Shown here piece by piece: positions 3,771 through 46,027 of a stretch of DNA of 64,000 nt. The stretch is taken from positions 8,911 to 72,910 of the forward strand of contig JALSHZ010000031.1 in the NCBI GenBank assembly GCA_026981985.1. Direction: 5' to 3'. The notes below the pieces were generated by a model. It searched no databases. It saw only the letters and a list, made by a program, of their open reading frames with translations, and had not been told where the DNA came from. This stretch comes from Gammaproteobacteria bacterium. GTDB lineage: Bacteria; Pseudomonadota; Gammaproteobacteria; UWMA-0217. Both the position numbers and the translations under genes were made by a program. Each line of letters opens with the position of its first letter. Within the stretch, counting starts at the first letter, position 1.

Positions 3771-4628
3771 TCAAACCGCCTGCGGCGGTAGCTCCCTGAA
3801 GCCACGTTTGCGTCGTAGCCGGGCGGCCAGCCATGGCTGATGCGAGAACAGCACTTCCGTTTCGATACTGCCGTCGCGGTGCAGCACCAGTCGGCGATAG
3901 GCTGGTGTCTGCGCGGTAAAGCTGAGGTGTTCCGATTCTGGCAGAAACTGTAGGCAGGTGGATGGCGTGCCGAGTACCCTGATGTGCCCATGCTGGCGGT
4001 CGAGCTGCTGGTGGATGTGTCCACAGACAATGGTCTTCAGCTGCGGCACGGTGCCGAGTTGCGCCAGCGCCGCATCGGCGCCAATCATGCCGTGATGTGT
4101 ATCGAGCCATTCACTGCCAACCGGTAGTGGGTGGTGGTGAATGAACAGCGCAGCGTGATGTTGTGGAAACTTCTCTACCATTGCCTCGATCCAGCCCAGT
4201 TGGATCGTGGAAATCTCCCCCTGATCGACCCCCCGTCTGGAAGTGTCGAGAAACAGCAGTAACCAATCCTTTTTGATGATGAATCGCGGCATCGAGACTA
4301 CTTCGCCATCCAGCGCGGCGCTGAGCTGTTGTCTGTCGTCGTGGTTACCGGGCAGGCAGTAGACTGGCGAACCTTCGTCCTGCAGTAACCGGACGAACCG
4401 CCGGTAAGCCTCTGCCTCTCCCTTCTGGGCGATATCGCCCGTGACCACCAGTGCGTCGAAACAGGGCTCATTCACCTGGATATCGTCGAGCACGGTGGAA
4501 AGCGTTTCCGTGGTGTCGAGATCATCGCAATGCGGGCACCAGCCCAACCCTTCTTCAGGGTGTGCCTGCAAATGCAGATCGGTGATCTGGATGATCCGAA
4601 GAGGCTCCGCTTCTTCAATGATTGGCAT
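3771..4628 (-). CDS. cpdA: 3',5'-cyclic-nucleotide phosphodiesterase CpdA (metallophosphoesterase)
   Basis: 285 aa. Calcineurin-like motifs: ITDLH, GDIAQKG, GNHD, GHIH. Confidence 0.85.
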   Translation of the reverse strand: MPIIEEAEPLRIIQITDLHLQAHPEEGLGWCPHCDDLDTTETLSTVLDDIQVNEPCFDALVVTGDIAQKGEAEAYRRFVRLLQDEGSPVYCLPGNHDDRQQLSAALDGEVVSMPRFIIKKDWLLLFLDTSRRGVDQGEISTIQLGWIEAMVEKFPQHHAALFIHHHPLPVGSEWLDTHHGMIGADAALAQLGTVPQLKTIVCGHIHQQLDRQHGHIRVLGTPSTCLQFLPESEHLSFTAQTPAYRRLVLHRDGSIETEVLFSHQPWLAARLRRKRGFRELPPQAV

Positions 4629-5138: not shown

Positions 5139-6653
5139 ATGAGAAAACACTATCTGCCGGTAGCGGGCGTGATGCTCGTGGCGCTGGCACTGCTATTGTC
5201 CGCTGGATCGGGCGTCGCCGCCGAAGCCGTGGCCCAGAAAGCGCCGGAGCAAAAAACCGAGGTCAAACAAATCGATGAAGAGAAGAAATTACAGGGCGAA
5301 TGTGTTGGCTGCCATATCAACGTGACGCCAGGCATCGTCAAGCAGCATCTTGGCAGCCCTCACGCCAACACCACCAACCAGGAAGATGAGGTGCTTTGCT
5401 CCAGTTGTCATGGCGAAAAACACACGGCCATGGATGACTGGAAGAAGGCCGAAATGCCGACCGCCGAGGTTTGCGGCGAATGCCATAAAAAACAGCATCG
5501 ACAACATGCTGAAGGCAAGCACAATTTGGGCTGGCTGGTAATGAAGTCACAGATTGCCTGGCATGGCCAGCCTGGCGCCATTGCCGGTGAAGGTTATCGC
5601 GGTTGTTCGGGTTGCCACAAAATCGGCAAAAAAGGCTTGCTGGGTGTGACCGACGGAAATACCGGCGAGGTCAAATACGATGGTGGCAAGGAAGAAGCGA
5701 AATATCGCTATGGCAATGTACAGTGTGATGCCTGCCATACCCGCCATAGTTTCAAGGTTTCGGAGGCGAGGGATCCGCGTGCCTGCTCAAACTGCCATAT
5801 GGGATTCGACCATCCCCAATGGGAAATGTACTCGTCAGCCAAGCATGGCGTGATCTGGGCAATCGAAGGGCATGAGGAGGGCGCTCGCGCACCGACCTGC
5901 CAGAATTGTCACATCATGGAAGGAGATCATGCAGTCAAGACACCCTGGGGATTCCTAGGCCTGCGTATTCCCACCAAGGAAAACGTGCTGGCGCTGATCA
6001 AAGCTGCGCCTTCACTAGAGCCGCAATTGACCAAGCTTGCTGCTGCGTTGCCGTCGGGCAACTATATCGATGTCGACGATGATCCCACCTGGACATTGGA
6101 TCGCGCGCTGATTCTCCAGGCTTCCGGTGTGCTGGATGAAAATCTGCAACCCACCGAGCGGTTTATCGAAATTGTCGTGCAGGCACAGGCGGCTCGTGGC
6201 CCAGACGAGTTCAACGAATTGCGGCAGAAAATGAAGGACAATTGCAATAAATGTCATTCGAAGGGGTTCGTTGATCTGCACATGAAGGCATCAGATGAAA
6301 TTCTGAAGGCTGCGGATCATGAATTTGCCAAGGCGATCAAGGCAGTGCAGGGGCTCTACAAGGATGGCATATTGAAAAAGCCCGAAGGCTGGAAATATGC
6401 GCCAGATTTATTGCAGTACTACGAGGCAAAGACAAAAATAGAGCAGGAGCTATACATGATTTTCCTCGAATATCGTCAACGCACTTTTCAGGGCGCATTC
6501 CACGCCAGCAACGACTACATGCACTGGTACGGTTGGGCGCCACTGAAGTCTGCTGTTGCGACGATTCTGGAAGAGGAGAAGAAATTACGGGCCGAGCACA
6601 AAGCCAAGCAGGCGGCGCAGGCTCATAGCGAGGAGGTGGCTGCAAAACGGTAA
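5139..6653 (+). CDS. Octaheme c-type cytochrome, hydroxylamine-oxidoreductase (HAO) family-like
   Basis: Signal peptide. Eight CxxCH motifs: CVGCH, CSSCH, CGECH, CSGCH, CDACH, CSNCH, CQNCH, CNKCH. About 505 aa. Good RBS AAAGGGGA before ATG 5139. Followed by a terminator. Confidence 0.75.
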   Translation: MRKHYLPVAGVMLVALALLLSAGSGVAAEAVAQKAPEQKTEVKQIDEEKKLQGECVGCHINVTPGIVKQHLGSPHANTTNQEDEVLCSSCHGEKHTAMDDWKKAEMPTAEVCGECHKKQHRQHAEGKHNLGWLVMKSQIAWHGQPGAIAGEGYRGCSGCHKIGKKGLLGVTDGNTGEVKYDGGKEEAKYRYGNVQCDACHTRHSFKVSEARDPRACSNCHMGFDHPQWEMYSSAKHGVIWAIEGHEEGARAPTCQNCHIMEGDHAVKTPWGFLGLRIPTKENVLALIKAAPSLEPQLTKLAAALPSGNYIDVDDDPTWTLDRALILQASGVLDENLQPTERFIEIVVQAQAARGPDEFNELRQKMKDNCNKCHSKGFVDLHMKASDEILKAADHEFAKAIKAVQGLYKDGILKKPEGWKYAPDLLQYYEAKTKIEQELYMIFLEYRQRTFQGAFHASNDYMHWYGWAPLKSAVATILEEEKKLRAEHKAKQAAQAHSEEVAAKR

Positions 6654-6726: not shown

Positions 6727-6860
6727 ACTCAAGTTTTGGAGTTCAGGTTGGAAAGCCAGCCAATTCCGGTGCCCCCCTTTTTTTTCGTAAAGGGAGTGGT
6801 TGGAGCAGCCAGACGATCGGTTTGGCGCAAATAAGGGGGTAAGCTGAGCAGTTACAAAGT
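6727..6860. repeat. Degenerate, chimeric fragment: MITE family-2 left end joined to a family-1 TIR-like end
   Basis: gactcaagttttggagttcag...ccctttttttttcgtaaaggg resembles the 7805 element. Ends ggcgcaaataagggggtaagctgagcagttac. The motif ggcgcaaa.a.ggggg....ctgagcagttac recurs at 24286-24322. Confidence 0.5.
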
Positions 6861-7804: not shown

Positions 7805-8185
7805 AACTCAAGTTTCGGAGTTCAGATTTGCCCATCAGCCAGTTCCCCGGGAAAGGTGGAGGCTGGAATGTAGCTCGGTCGCGGAGGAGCCACCAAAAGC
7901 CTCCCTTTCGCAAAGGGAGGTTTGGAGGGATTGGTGCTGCGGAGTTTTGGTCTGGTGGGGTGGTATAAATCCCCCTCAATCCCCCTTTGGCAAAGGGGGA
8001 AGTTGTCAGAGGTGGCAGCCCTGTTTTCAGGGACAGCGCCGGTCTTGAGCGCGTGGCCACTGATTCATCGATTCTGATATGGTGACCCAGGAATCAACAA
8101 TACCACCTATTGCAACGCATTATTTGTTTTGCATCAACGGGTTGCTCACTGATTTAGATGCGACATGAACTCCGAAACTTGAGTT
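7805..8185 (+). mobile_element. MITE-like element, family 2 (381 bp)
   Basis: 20-bp terminal inverted repeats aactcaagtttcggagttca / tgaactccgaaacttgagtt. Internal perfect palindromes cctccctttcgcaaagggagg and ccccctttggcaaaggggg. No ORF. Confidence 0.7.
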
Positions 8186-8414
8186 AAAAAATGTTGAGCT
8201 TGTTTTAGTGGTGGGCTATCTATTGTTATTGCGCCGCCATGGCAGTTGATCCGTATGAAATCGTCGGGATTTGGAAGAAAAGTCCAGGTTGGGGCGATGC
8301 AAGCTGTCAAAACCGAGGGCTGGGGAGAGGAAAAGCCAAGAATTTTGGCTTCTGGTCTGTGTTCCCTCTCCCCGCGGGAGAGGGGATTTATGACATGATT
8401 AAGGCTGTTCTCTA

Positions 8415-8566
8415 GTAACTATTCAGTTGGCAGAAAAATGGAGCCGTAACTGCTCAGATTGCCGCTGAAACGCGTCAGATCAAGGCGGGAAATGTGAGTT
8501 TACAGGTGTAAATGACCATTTCCCAACGCAGAGATGGCGCGTTTCAGTGGTGAGCTGAGTAGTTAC
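8415..8566 (+). mobile_element. MITE family 1, short form (152 bp)
   Basis: TIR gtaactattcag / ctgagtagttac. 8-bp TSD gttctcta at 8407-8414 and 8567-8574. Confidence 0.85.
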
Positions 8567-8687
8567 GTTCTCTATTGATGATAAATTGCCAATAGAAAAT
8601 CTATCAATCTGTGCTTGTCATATTTACACGAGATATTTTGTTGTTCGATGGAATGGCCTGAGGTCTACGAGTTGAAACCAAAAGCCT

Positions 8688-16993: not shown

Positions 16994-17006
16994 GGCTTCA
17001 CGCTAG

Positions 17007-17256
17007 GTAACTACTCAGCTCACGACTGAAACGCGCCATCTCTGCGTCGCCTACAAGGATGTAGGTGAGGGGCGTGAGCAGGAGGCGGAAGCTTTGGGAA
17101 ATGGTCATTTACCCGTGGTAGAGAATTGCTCCATGCATTTTCTACACTTCCCACTTCCATGTGGGTCGTAAACTCACATTTCCCGCCTTGATCTGACGCG
17201 TTTCAGCGGCAATCTGAGCAGTTACGGTTCTATTTTTCTACCTTCTGAATAGTTAC
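17007..17256 (-). mobile_element. MITE family 1, long form (250 bp), inverted orientation
   Basis: TIR gtaactactcag / ctgaatagttac. 8-bp TSD cacgctag at 16999-17006 and 17257-17264. Inserted 6 bp after the dsrC-like stop. Confidence 0.85.
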
Positions 17257-17484
17257 CACGCTAGTAGTTGCTGCTGCATTACCATGGTGCGGGCGGTCGT
17301 CGTGGCCGCCGTGCATCATGCTTGCCTTTCCAGATTCCACTCATTTTCTTCGTGAGTGCCTCCCCCCGCCAATACGCCCCTCATACCCCGGCTTATCGCC
17401 GTATGCACAGGTTCTATGAGATTGACGCCAGGCCGCGCGTTACACTGGACGCCCGGAGCCTGAATGATGACCTGAGGTAATGCC

Positions 17485-20037: not shown

Positions 20038-20150
20038 GCCTCCCTTTCGCAAAGGGAGGTTTGGAGGGATTGTTACCGCGGTGTTTTGGTGTGGCGCGGT
20101 GGTTCAAATCCCCCTCCATCCCCATTGGGGAAAGGAGGCGTCCTGGGGCA
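20038..20150. repeat. Solo internal fragment of MITE family 2 (palindrome-rich) between convergent genes
   Basis: cctccctttcgcaaagggaggtttggagggatt...ggttcaaatccccctccatcccc matches the interior of the 7805 element. No TIRs. Confidence 0.6.
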
Positions 20151-24271: not shown

Positions 24272-24333
24272 ACCCAATCGCCCCTACTTGGCGCAAAACG
24301 GGGGCAATCATCTGAGCAGTTACACCCAGAAAC

Positions 24334-25992
24334 TTGGGCATTGAGATGATGATACGTCTGCTGGTGATTTTCCTCTTGCTGGGGCTTTCTGGCTGCGCGC
24401 ATTTTCGCGTCAACGAGCCATTGCCTCAGTATATTGTGCGTGATGAACCGGTGCGGCCCGATCGTGCCGATGACCTGCTCGTGGTGCTGTCGTTTTCCGG
24501 TGGCGGCAGTCGGGCGTCGGCGCTTTCTTATGGTGTGTTGCAAGCGCTGGCGGCGTCGCGTATCGAATGGAATGGTCGTCAACGACGTTTGCTTGATGAA
24601 GTCGATATTGTCTTCGGCGTCTCCGGTGGCAGTTTCACCGCCGCCTATTTCGCGCTGTTTGGCGACCGCATCTTCACAGAATTCGAGCCGGGTTTTTTGC
24701 GCCGCGATGTTGATGGCACCCTGGTCAAGCGGCTGTTCAATCCCATCAACTGGTTCCGCCTGGCAACGCCGTATTTCAATCGCAGTGAAATGGCCGAAGC
24801 CTACTATGATGAGATTCTTGTAACTATTCAGCATTCGCTGAAGTAGAACCGTAACTGCTCAGATTGCCGCTGGAATGCGTCAGATCAAGGCGGGAAATGT
24901 GAGTTTACGACCCACAGGGAAGTGGGGAGTGCAGGCAATGCATGGAGCAATTGCCTGCCGAGTGTAAATGATCATTTCCCAAAGCTTCCGCATCCTGCTC
25001 ACGCCCCTCACCTACATCCATGTAGGCGACACAGAGATGGCGCATTCCAGTGGTGAGCTGAGTAGTTACAGATTCTTTTTCATGGCGCGACCTTTGGTGA
25101 TATCGACCCGCGGCGGGCGCCAGCGCTGCTGGTCAATGCGACCGATGTAACGCTGGGCGATGGGTTCAGCTTTGACCAGACCCATTTCGACCTGATTTGT
25201 TCACGGCTCGATACCTACCCGGTGTCACGTGCTGTCACTGCATCATCCGCGGTGCCCGGTATTTTCTCCGCCATTACCATCGCCAACTATGCGGGCAGTT
25301 GTGGCTACGAGGTGCCGAGCTGGGTGCGGGATGTCTTGAAAGCGCCGAGTCGTGCCGATGGCCGGCTCTATCTGGCGCGAAAGATTGCAGCCTACGCCGA
25401 TCGGGAAAAACGCCCCTATATCCATCTGCTCGATGGTGGCCTGGCCGACAACCTGGGACTCCGTGCGTTGATCGATCGAGTGAAGCTGCATCACCGTACG
25501 CCGGATGGCTCGGTGCGTCATGTACTGCTGAATAGTGGTCTGAAAAAAATTCTGGTGGTTATCGTCAATGCCGCAGCGGCACCCGATACCCGGCTGAATC
25601 TGCTTGACTATCCGCCATCCATTGCTACCACGGTAGATATTGCCACCACCGTGCAGGTCAATCGCTACAACAATGAAACATTGCGTGTGTTTCGGGAAAA
25701 TCTCGAAGAGTGGCAGCAGTCGATCCGCCTGCTGCGATGCGGTGGCGAACATTGTGACGAGGAACCGGAGTTCTTTCTGGTGGATGCCAGTCTGATGCGC
25801 ATCGACGATCAGGCAGAGCGCAACTATCTCCAGACACTGCCGACCTCGTTTTCGCTGGACGATCAGGCGATCGATCGTTTGATTGCCGCGGGGCGACTGT
25901 TGCTACAGGAGTCCAGCGAGATGCAGCGTTTCCTGTCGGGGGTTCGGCCTGCTGCGATGGCTGCACAGGAATCAGCGCCGGCTGTACGGTGA
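24334..25992 (+). pseudogene. Patatin-like phospholipase gene interrupted by a MITE
   Basis: N-terminal fragment with GGGSRA and GVSGGS. C-terminal fragment with the DGGLADNLG catalytic Asp. Removing the element plus one TSD restores a continuous frame ...YYDEIL|FHGATFGDIDPRRAPALLVNATD.... The element carries an in-frame TAG at 24844-24846. Confidence 0.85.
24820..25069 (+). mobile_element. MITE family 1, long form (250 bp), inserted into the patatin gene
   Basis: TIR gtaactattcag / ctgagtagttac. 8-bp TSD agattctt at 24812-24819 and 25070-25077. The insertion is 258 bp, a multiple of 3. Confidence 0.9.
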
Positions 25993-26012: not shown

Positions 26013-26235
26013 AACTCAAGTTTCGGAGTTCAGATTTGCACATCAGCCAGTTTTCCCCCCTTTCGCAAAGGGGGGTAGGGGGGATTGGAACGTCCATGGG
26101 TTCGCAGCAAGTCCCTGAAAATCCCCCTCAATCCCCCTTTGCGAAAGGGGGAAGCTGTCAGGCGCGGTAGTCGTGTTGTTATGGATAGCGCTGGCCTCAA
26201 CCGTGATGAACTCCAAAACTTGATATTGAAACAAC
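26013..26235 (+). mobile_element. MITE-like element, family 2 (about 223 bp, diverged right end)
   Basis: Left TIR aactcaagtttcggagttca. Right end tgaactccaaaacttgat. Internal ccctttcgcaaagggggg palindromes. Confidence 0.65.
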
Positions 26236-40229: not shown

Positions 40230-42497
40230 ATGAAAACCCCGTCTTATGTTCGTCAACAGAGAAGTGGCAGGGAATGCGCGCTCACCATCCCTAGGGAACT
40301 AAATTTCGACAGGAAGCTGCTCGTCACAGCCCTGCTGGTGGCGGGGCTCGCCGCAGGCATGTCGATATCGACAGTCGCCAATGCCGCAGGAACCAATGTC
40401 TTCGTACAGAACAGTCCCAATTTTGACACGGACGGTGATGGCTTGACCGACGACATCGATACCGACGATGACAATGACGGCATCCCCGACATTGCCGAAT
40501 ATGACACCTTTGTCGACACTGATTGTGACGGCATCTACGACTCGGTAGATGCCGCCAACGGGGATTGTACTGGCACCGATATCAAGGGCAGTGGTGACAG
40601 CGACGGTGATGGCATCTCTGATGCCATCGAGTGCCCGCTGGCGCCTAACTGCCGTGATAGTGATCGAGATGGTATCCCTGACTATATGGATCCCGACGAT
40701 GACAATGATGGCGTCCCGACGTCAGAGGAGGGCGATGTCGATACCGATAATGACGGTGTTCCAGATCGCCTCGAGCCCAACAATGTCGATCTGGATGGGG
40801 ATGGCCTGTGCAATTGCGAGGATGCCGACGATGACGGGGACAATATTCCCACGGCAACCGAGCTGGGAAATCCTGATGCCCCGCTCGATACCGACAATGA
40901 TGGTATCCCTGACTATCTCGATGCCAGCAACGGGGATGGCAGTGGCCAGGATATCGCAGGCTCTGGTGACTCCGACGGTGATGGTCTATCGGATGGCTAT
41001 GAATGTCCGCTGGATTCGGGGCCATGTCGTGATACCGATGGTGATGGTATCCCTGACTACATGGATGCCGATGATGATGGTGATGGCATCCTGGCGATTG
41101 ATGAAGACCTGAATGGTGATGGCGATCCAAGCAATGATGATACCGACGGCGATGGTATCCCTGACTGTTTGGAAAGTAATATTGCCGATGCCGACGGGGA
41201 TGGCATACCCGACAATGAAGATGCCGATGACTCTGAAACTGGCGGCGGAACTGGCGGCGGAACTGGCGGTGGAACTGGCGGTGGAACTGGCGGTGGAACT
41301 GGCGGTGGAACTGGCGGTGGAACTGGCGGTGGAACTGGCGGTGATACGGACACCAAGTACGGGGACATCATTTCTGGAACTGGCGCATTGAGCCCTGCTT
41401 TGTGGTTGCTCCCCTTGTTGTTGAGGGGCATACGCCGCTTGCGGGGAAAGTCTGCCACGTCCGCCGCCGTCATTGGCGCCGGGCTGCTGGCATTGAATAT
41501 CGCGGTACCAACCCCAGTGCTCGCCGAGGGTAATCAGTGGTACATCGGTGTCGGTGCGGGTGCTTCCAATCTTGAACCCGATACCCGCAGAACACCCGTC
41601 AAGGTGACGGATGAAACTGATTATGGCTACAAGATCTTTGCCGGTCGTGAGCTGTCTGACCATGTCTCGGTGGAAGGCTTCTGGGCGGATCTGGGGGAAG
41701 CAGGCATCGGGCCCGGAAACGTTGGCCAGGTCGACTACAACATGTATGGCGCATCGCTGCAGGTGTCGTTGCCGGAAAACAACCCGGGTTTTTCAACCTT
41801 CATCAAGGGTGGTGTCGTCGGCCTGCATGCCACCTCCAACCTGCCGCATCACACTGATGAAAAGTTCCAGGTCTATGGTGGTGCTGGTGCGGAATACCAG
41901 ATGGAGAATGGTTTTACCGTGCGCGGTGAATACGAGTACTACACCAAGGACGCGCAGCTACTGTCGTTCAGCTTGATCAAGCGCTTTGGTGGCGATTATG
42001 AGGAGCTGGTGGATGAAAGTGCGCCAGTGATACGGCAGCCACTCGATACCGCCTCCCCTATCAGTGACCGGGATCATGACGGCGTTGCCGACATCAAGGA
42101 CCGCTGCCCGGCAACGCCTGATGGTGCGCCAGTCAACGAGAAGGGGTGCCCCGCTTTTGTTGGTGTCATGAATGGCATCCATTTCGCCACCAACTCGGCA
42201 CGCCTGAAGCCTGAAGCGCGGGATGTGCTCGACAAGGTCGCAAAGGCTATCAAGGCATATCCCGGCAAGAAATTCGTCATCGTCGGGCACACGGACAATG
42301 TTGGCAGCCCTGCGGCCAACAAGAAATTGTCGATCGCACGAGCCCGTACCGTGGCGAAATATCTGGTGCTTCGGGGCGTGCCCGCCAGCCAGCTTCGATA
42401 TGGGGGCTACGGTTCGAGCAAACCGGTCGCCACCAACTCGACACCTGAAGGCCGCGCCAAGAATCGTCGGGTCGAGATCCTGATGCTGAAGCAGTAG
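40230..42497 (+). CDS. OmpA-family outer-membrane protein with thrombospondin type-3 (TSP3) calcium-binding repeats
   Basis: Signal peptide. About 15 DxDxDGxxDxxD repeats. GGGT x9 linker. Beta-barrel region ([10 protein letters not shown]...). C-terminal OmpA domain (HTDNVGS...NRRVEI). Confidence 0.85.
41238..41345 (+). repeat. 12-bp tandem repeat (actggcggYgga) x9 inside the TSP3-OmpA gene
   Basis: Encodes (GGGT)9. Nearly perfect units. Confidence 0.9.
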
Positions 42498-45875: not shown

Positions 45876-46027
45876 GTGACTATTCAGTAGGCAGAAAAAT
45901 AGAACCGTAACTGCTCAGATTGCCGCTGAAACGCGTCAGATCAAGGCGGGGAATGTGAGTTTACATGTGTAAATGACCATTTCCCAACGCAGAGATGACG
46001 CGTTTCAGTGGTGAGCTGGGCAGTTAC
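45876..46027 (+). mobile_element. MITE family 1, short form (152 bp, slightly diverged TIR gtgactattcag)
   Basis: Same internal sequence as 8415-8566. No clean TSD. Confidence 0.75.

Follow-up and report, generated by a model that had tools for sequence, protein, structure and literature searches.

A family of miniature transposable elements in marine sulfur-oxidizing bacteria bears ends matching those of the ISBst12 group of IS66-family insertion sequences

The 64-kb stretch of gammaproteobacterial DNA that we analyzed (hereafter the window, meaning the whole of that stretch) contains four copies of a non-autonomous DNA transposon (MITE) that very probably carries the terminal inverted repeats (TIRs) of the single-ORF ISBst12 group, a branch of the IS66 family of insertion sequences (ISs), and is presumably mobilized in trans. 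A first-pass annotation, made from the letters of the window, had read these repeats as a MITE family, and our results support that reading. The elements show the features by which prokaryotic MITEs are recognized: they are small (<500 bp) and non-coding, end in TIRs, are bordered by target-site duplications (TSDs) of a fixed length of 8 bp, and occur in short and long forms and in many dispersed copies, one of which occupies a site that is empty in an orthologue. The family is spread through a group of marine sulfur-oxidizing bacteria, and it has been active recently enough to have left perfect TSDs and a disrupted gene.

Alignment upheld all four copies first annotated, including their two lengths of 152 and 250 bp and the inversion of the second copy. 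Copy 1 (8415-8566, plus strand) is a short form of 152 bp, in which the outer-left TIR (8415-8426) is separated by a 19-bp spacer from an inner TIR (8446-8457), the right TIR occupying 8555-8566; it is flanked by the TSD GTTCTCTA (8407-8414 and 8567-8574). Copy 2 (17007-17256, minus strand) is an inverted long form of 250 bp with the TSD CACGCTAG (16999-17006 and 17257-17264), and the stop of a DsrC-like gene lies 14 bp before it. Copy 3 (24820-25069, plus strand), again a 250-bp long form, sits within a patatin-like lipoprotein gene between two copies of AGATTCTT (24812-24819 and 25070-25077). Copy 4 (45876-46027, plus strand) is a decayed 152-bp short form whose left and right TIRs (GTGACTATTCAG and CTGGGCAGTTAC) each carry one mutation and which has no TSD; because the TSD is absent and each outer TIR holds a substitution, we regard this copy as older. 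It lies in the divergent promoter region between an RNase T-like gene, 73 bp upstream of its start, and a pyruvate dehydrogenase E1 gene, 127 bp upstream of its start, and no consensus promoter was found in it. The perfect 8-bp duplications annotated for three copies are thus those of copies 1 to 3, and, as also annotated, all copies are intergenic (1, 2 and 4) except the patatin insertion.

The 12-bp TIRs are likewise as first described, with GTAACTAYTCAG on the left and CTGAGTAGTTAC on the right. When one mismatch at most is allowed, the 12-mer GTAACTRYTCAG occurs at 14 sites in the window, while 0.26 are expected from shuffles, and 14 sites were reached in 0 of 100 shuffles. Twelve of the 14 are the outer-left, inner-left and right TIRs of each of the four copies. 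The other two (6844-6855 and 24312-24323, both on the minus strand) have about 22 more bases in common, CTTACCCCCTTATTTGCGCCAA. They were considered as ends of a parent IS and rejected as such; since diverged family members (at loci L033 and L071) have a right arm that aligns with them, they are solo-arm remnants of a diverged MITE subfamily. The first remnant (6820-6855, minus strand; GTAACTGCTCAGCTTACCCCCTTATTTGCGCCAA), which is homologous to an element end at position 5957 of L033 and to the L071 copy's right arm, is joined directly to part of a second MITE family. The second (24288-24323, minus strand) is more diverged and directly follows the stop of an AhpC/TSA gene. Together, the four copies and two solo arms make six family-related pieces in 64 kb.

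For the insertion in the patatin-like gene, the filled site can be compared directly with an empty one. Copy 3 lies after codon 158, between a 5' part (24346-24819, plus strand, 158 codons) and a 3' part (25078-25992, plus strand) that is in frame with the first once the MITE and one TSD are taken out. Their removal in silico restores a 462-aa patatin ORF, 99% of which can be aligned with intact orthologues of 459 aa, the best of them 90% identical. In the DNA encoding that 90%-identical orthologue (L066) the site is empty, with a single AGATCCTT and no element: the sequence reads ...GACGAGATCCTT|TTTCATGGCGCG..., and its equivalent in the window is AGATTCTT-MITE-AGATTCTT. A single 8-mer in the one and a flanked MITE in the other are direct evidence of insertion with an 8-bp duplication, and the patatin-like phospholipase gene has been inactivated by copy 3. 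Strain-level empty sites were also sought by exact-protein look-ups of the flanking genes, which returned only contigs identical at those proteins, or none; most of the contigs recovered in this way end at or inside a MITE.

Duplications of the same length border the family elsewhere. Among 39 complete copies (genome loci plus the window), the TSD matches at 8 of 8 positions in 26 and at 7 of 8 in 5, and the remainder mostly have a 1-bp spacer indel or a variant spacer. After de-duplication of genome, metagenome and window copies, 63 of 96 unique complete insertions among the matches listed have an 8/8 TSD and a further 18 a 7/8 TSD, while the next 8 bp outward, taken as a control, score about 2/8. 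The TSD sequences have no consensus and are 43% GC.

On the left, an element opens with the outer TIR GTAACTAYTCAG, which a 19-bp spacer separates from a near-palindrome measuring 121 bp in the short form and 219 bp in the long one. A second TIR, GTAACTGCTCAG, begins the left arm of this near-palindrome, and CTGAGTAGTTAC closes the right arm. The inner-left and right arms, 47 nt each, are 74% complementary. The tandem second TIR reported at the left end is thus indeed present in the copies, but the 37-bp interval that the first-pass annotation placed between the two left TIRs is wrong, since the spacer measures 19 bp and the TIRs lie 31 bp apart from start to start. Moreover, the right end quoted there as common to all copies is exact in copies 1 and 3 and not in the others. 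The outer TIR lies about 31 bp outside one arm, and one arm only, in every lineage but one; the spacer is lineage-specific and fast-evolving, with homology still recognizable. The invariance of the inner TIR is partly by construction, both of our collection scans having required it. Because the TSDs lie at the outer TIR, we infer that this, rather than the inner left TIR, is the end normally used. A Thiolapillus copy is the only clear 121-bp form, and its TSD (7/8) directly abuts the inner TIR.

Several length classes are found. Among the matches listed, unique complete copies measure 151-153 bp (n = 72), ~198-204 bp (n = 15) or 250 bp (n = 4), and lengths of 167, 269, 314 and 429 bp are represented by one or two copies each. 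In the longer forms (~199, 250, 269, 314 and 429 bp) the added material lies in the center of the palindrome. The long form had been credited with a single extra internal segment of ~98 bp; the size is right, but in the alignment the addition falls into two blocks, 51 and 47 columns wide, that flank a conserved center. An internal piece, AATGCA(T)GGAGCAATTG, is common to the ~199-bp and 250-bp forms, and because it is missing from the 152-bp form, the latter is most simply explained as having arisen by deletion. Further insertions are present in the longest forms. Left ends (L017, L041 and others) for which no right end lay within 420 bp were examined as candidate full-length ISs and rejected, as they are truncated copies or have a small deletion in the right TIR. 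At L004 we also observed a 31-bp mini-derivative (3861-3891; GTAACTACTCAGCGGCAATCTGAGCAGTTAC), barely more than two facing TIRs. It adjoins the outer TIR and spacer of a family-1 copy, that is, of the family described here; with a 31-bp remainder beside these parts, the center of the L004 copy has been almost wholly deleted.

The family is dispersed, as first proposed, and is no local duplication. We searched one genome per GTDB species for exact matches to an invariant 22-mer, made up of the inner TIR and 10 further nt, and found it on 59 contigs of seven species-representative genomes belonging to Sedimenticola, Thiotrichales and relatives. At least 27 contigs come from the Sedimenticola sp. 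MAG JALSSX and at least 20 from the uncultured Thiotrichales MAG CAZQXF, followed by the Gammaproteobacteria MAG WFMW with seven, the Sedimenticola MAG JALULB with two, and JANTGD, QIHH and the Thiolapillus brandeum MAG DRLF with one each. A degenerate pattern spanning both arms matched at least 118 metagenome contigs. Most of these data come from fragmented MAGs and metagenomes, and many of the matches lie at contig ends, in keeping with the way that repeats break assemblies. A BLASTN comparison of the 152-bp copy with the PLSDB plasmids gave no match. The MITE at L168, considered as an orthologous, conserved insertion matching copy 4, was rejected because it lies at the far end of its contig.

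There is next to no room for a segmental duplication within the locus, or for a REP/BIME-type repeat spread by a RAYT (REP-associated tyrosine transposase): four copies within 64 kb and a palindromic structure might suggest either, but flanks and TSDs differ from copy to copy, dozens of independent 8-bp TSDs exist elsewhere along with an empty site, and 8-bp TSDs are the rule here while REPs make none.

The termini point to the transposase family that would move the element. ISDge4 of Deinococcus geothermalis belongs to the single-ORF ISBst12 group of the IS66 family, has the TIRs GTGACTACTCAGCA and GTAACTGCTCAGCA with an 8-bp direct repeat, and has been observed to insert into a carotenoid gene (PMC12898284); the element measures 1469 bp and has 8 copies (PMC8369957). 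An IS of Geobacillus kaustophilus pHTA426, named "IS66-like element ISGka4 family" by NCBI, is 1635 bp long, has the ends GTATCTATTCAGCCC and GTAACTATTCAGCCC and the 8-bp TSD GACGAGTT, and encodes a transposase of 485 aa with the Pfam domains DDE_Tnp_IS66 (E = 1.9e-64), zf-IS66 and DUF6444. Its second end matches the outer-left TIR of the window at 12 of 12 nt. In the metagenomes, the intact 1735-bp IS at L197 encodes a 477-aa transposase between 15-nt TIRs, GTAACTACTCAGCGT; a decayed IS copy at L189 ends in ...CGCTGAGTAGTTAC, 24 bp past the stop codon, and the left ends at L190 and L194, GTAACTACTCAGCGTAA..., are of the L197 type. The MITE end is identical over 12-14 nt to those of ISDge4, L197, L189, L190 and L194, and in the MITE subfamily found in those metagenome samples the outer-left TIR, GTAACTACTCAGCGAG..., has 14 nt identical to the IS.

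On these identities with characterized ISs, the ends of the MITE can be assigned to the ISBst12 group. Like the members of that group (ISDge4, ISBst12, the pHTA426 copy and L197), the MITE has terminal 12-15 nt of the form GTAACT[A/G][C/T]TCAG... and a TSD of 8 bp. Classic three-ORF IS66 elements (IS66, IS679, ISPa75; tnpA-tnpB-tnpC) share ends starting with GTAA and the 8-bp TSD, and IS66 itself makes 8-bp duplications (PMC6778807), but the ends of classic members read GTAAGCG... or GTAACCG... (PMC12888890). The MITE, in contrast to TIRs of the type GTAAGCG... or GTAACCGTCC..., has GTAACTNNTCAG, and by this comparison of termini the match is specific to the single-ORF ISBst12 group rather than to classic IS66.

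The resemblance stops at the termini. Similarity between MITE and IS ends after 12-15 terminal nt (14-15 nt for L189 and L197), beyond which the subterminal sequence is unrelated, and no parent IS with matching subterminal sequence was found among the ISs compared. Nor do any of these ISs have the internal second TIR or the palindrome with 47-nt arms, and unlike them (1.5-1.7 kb, with a DDE transposase of 450-485 aa) the MITE measures 152-250 bp and encodes nothing. A full-length IS with the same TIRs, anticipated in the first-pass annotation, exists as a class, the ISBst12 group, which has only the terminal 12-15 nt in common with the MITE, and none was found in the window.

In a tblastn search, the Geobacillus transposase matched nothing significantly in the 64-kb window or in loci L001-L069, which include the 59 genome loci, and among the matches listed no transposase gene was present on 176 of 177 MITE-bearing contigs. 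The exception is a truncated ISBst12-group transposase at the contig edge of L071 (FXBE01000042.1, positions 1-640), which corresponds to residues 56-257 of the Geobacillus protein, is 98% identical to P0121 and lies 5.3 kb from a MITE copy at 5931-6082. The ISs at L189, L190 and L194 are among the relatives of this fragment. P0139, considered as a multi-copy IS, was rejected, since it is one fixed, truncated locus that recurs in many samples. A programmed frameshift was considered for the transposase of L189 because it lies in two frames and the first matches to it were capped at ~350 aa; this too was rejected, since an insertion separates the conserved HD motif from the HALCNAHH motif in that copy, and single-ORF relatives with intact proteins of 470-477 aa are abundant. 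In addition, an IS copy at L196 (93-1851) has variant ends, GTCGCTACTCAGCG and CGCTGAGTAGCGAC, and the 12 bp outside each end are mutually inverted repeats (GTAGCGGCCTGA / TCAGGCCGCTAC), reflecting either a longer TIR in that lineage or an IS in a palindromic target.

As the window holds no transposase, we infer from the shared termini that the MITE would be mobilized in trans by a transposase of the ISBst12 group. In the mechanism that we propose, this DDE enzyme, encoded elsewhere, would bind the 12-15-nt termini GTAACTAYTCAG... / ...CTGAGTAGTTAC, excise or copy the element and join it to target DNA after a cut staggered by 8 bp, the repair of which would leave the 8-bp duplication.

As single-stranded DNA, the short form is predicted to fold, through its 121-bp core, into one long hairpin (-37.8 kcal/mol, z = -8.1), and the long form as RNA into the same stem with side hairpins from the extra blocks (-116 kcal/mol, z = -8.8). 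The hairpin has been kept, with 95.7% of cells paired over 54 distinct 152-bp copies. Double, compensatory changes between subfamilies are seen at 9 pairs (for example GGG/CCC vs. AAA/TTT) as against 3-6 in slid controls, and the six consensus pairs that are not Watson-Crick are all G-T when read on the top strand. Selection on a single-stranded form could produce such a pattern. What is unusual in the family is this long palindrome kept by compensatory changes beside an asymmetric left end with a doubled TIR, and we see a small chance that the asymmetric architecture and the compensatory upkeep of the arms are no accidents of origin but reflect a requirement, whether of ISBst12-group transposases acting on a hairpin or single-stranded intermediate or using subterminal sites besides the 12-nt end, or of an RNA hairpin co-opted by the host. 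If true, the abundance of this MITE would make it well suited as a substrate for studies of how IS66/ISBst12 elements transpose, a mechanism that has received little attention.

The same folding and covariation could be read as the mark of a structured element selected by the host, for instance an RNA hairpin serving as mRNA stabilizer, processing site or terminator, which was spread by transposition and is now kept for its function. We find this highly improbable. With respect to the nearest long ORFs the copies are oriented at random (39 sense vs. 42 antisense 3' of a gene, 39 vs. 43 5' of a gene), and a host function is for this reason unlikely. An Rfam covariance-model scan of the whole window gave no match at the gathering score, and no promoter-like or terminator-like sites were present inside the two copies scanned. 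Copy 3, moreover, lies within a gene, which it destroys. The compensatory pattern could arise equally from symmetric transposase-binding arms, from repair within the palindrome or from a small number of master copies.

We give as little credence to an origin from another IS family with 8-bp TSDs (ISL3, IS1595, IS256 or IS6), the ISBst12-like ends being a coincidence. Such an origin would accord with the sharing of only 12-15 terminal nt with the ISs examined and with the window having no cognate transposase. However, four independent single-ORF IS66-family elements, which come from three phyla and all have 8-bp TSDs, end in exactly this 12-mer, and the ends of the other families start with GG..., not GTAA....

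Among known elements, the family resembles bacterial MITEs such as Correia/NEMIS, RUP, ERIC, MITEAba12 and MITEPsy1 in being small and non-coding, with TIRs, TSDs and a high copy number, and in being mostly intergenic, hairpin-forming and occasionally disruptive of genes. It differs from them in its own TIR sequence, its source IS family, its 8-bp TSD (that of Correia is TA, and that of MITEAba12 is reportedly 9 bp) and its asymmetric left end with a doubled TIR. The literature searched held no description of an IS66- or ISBst12-derived MITE, or of these TIR strings outside ISDge4, so the family apparently is undescribed so far, though of an ordinary and well-understood kind. It is a new MITE family linked to the single-ORF ISBst12 branch of IS66 and leaves the existing picture of how MITEs work unchanged. 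It explains why assemblies of Sedimenticola-like sulfur oxidizers break at these sites, and it provides a ready marker with which strains can be typed and insertions dated in a clade that includes relatives of chemosynthetic symbionts.

Other repeats were observed in the window. A second, unrelated MITE-like family, with the TIR ACTCAAGTTTYGGAGTTCA (5 sites vs. 0.02 expected), is represented at 7806-8184 and 26014-26225 and by a left-end fragment at 6727-6819; its interior holds hairpins of the CCCCCTTTCGCAAAGGGGG type, and one copy may have a 4-bp TAAA duplication. At L043, the outer TIR of one family-1 copy is interrupted by an inserted member of this second family. Palindromic units of ~80-100 bp (CCTCCCTTTCGCAAAGGGAGG... 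/ AAATCCCCCTCAATCCCCCTTTG...) occur at 7899-7999, 20038-20138 and 26119-26197, in part inside second-family copies, with the unit at 20038-20138 standing alone directly after a gene; they may constitute a separate small repeat family. Finally, an ORF at 40230-42497 contains, at 40425-41367, about ten 39-nt repeats encoding motifs of the D-x-D-x-D-G-x-x-D type. After them, the 12-nt unit GGAACTGGCGGY is repeated perfectly in tandem ~10 times and encodes a Gly/Thr-rich tract; the length of this array is likely to vary, in what would be a surface or secreted protein.
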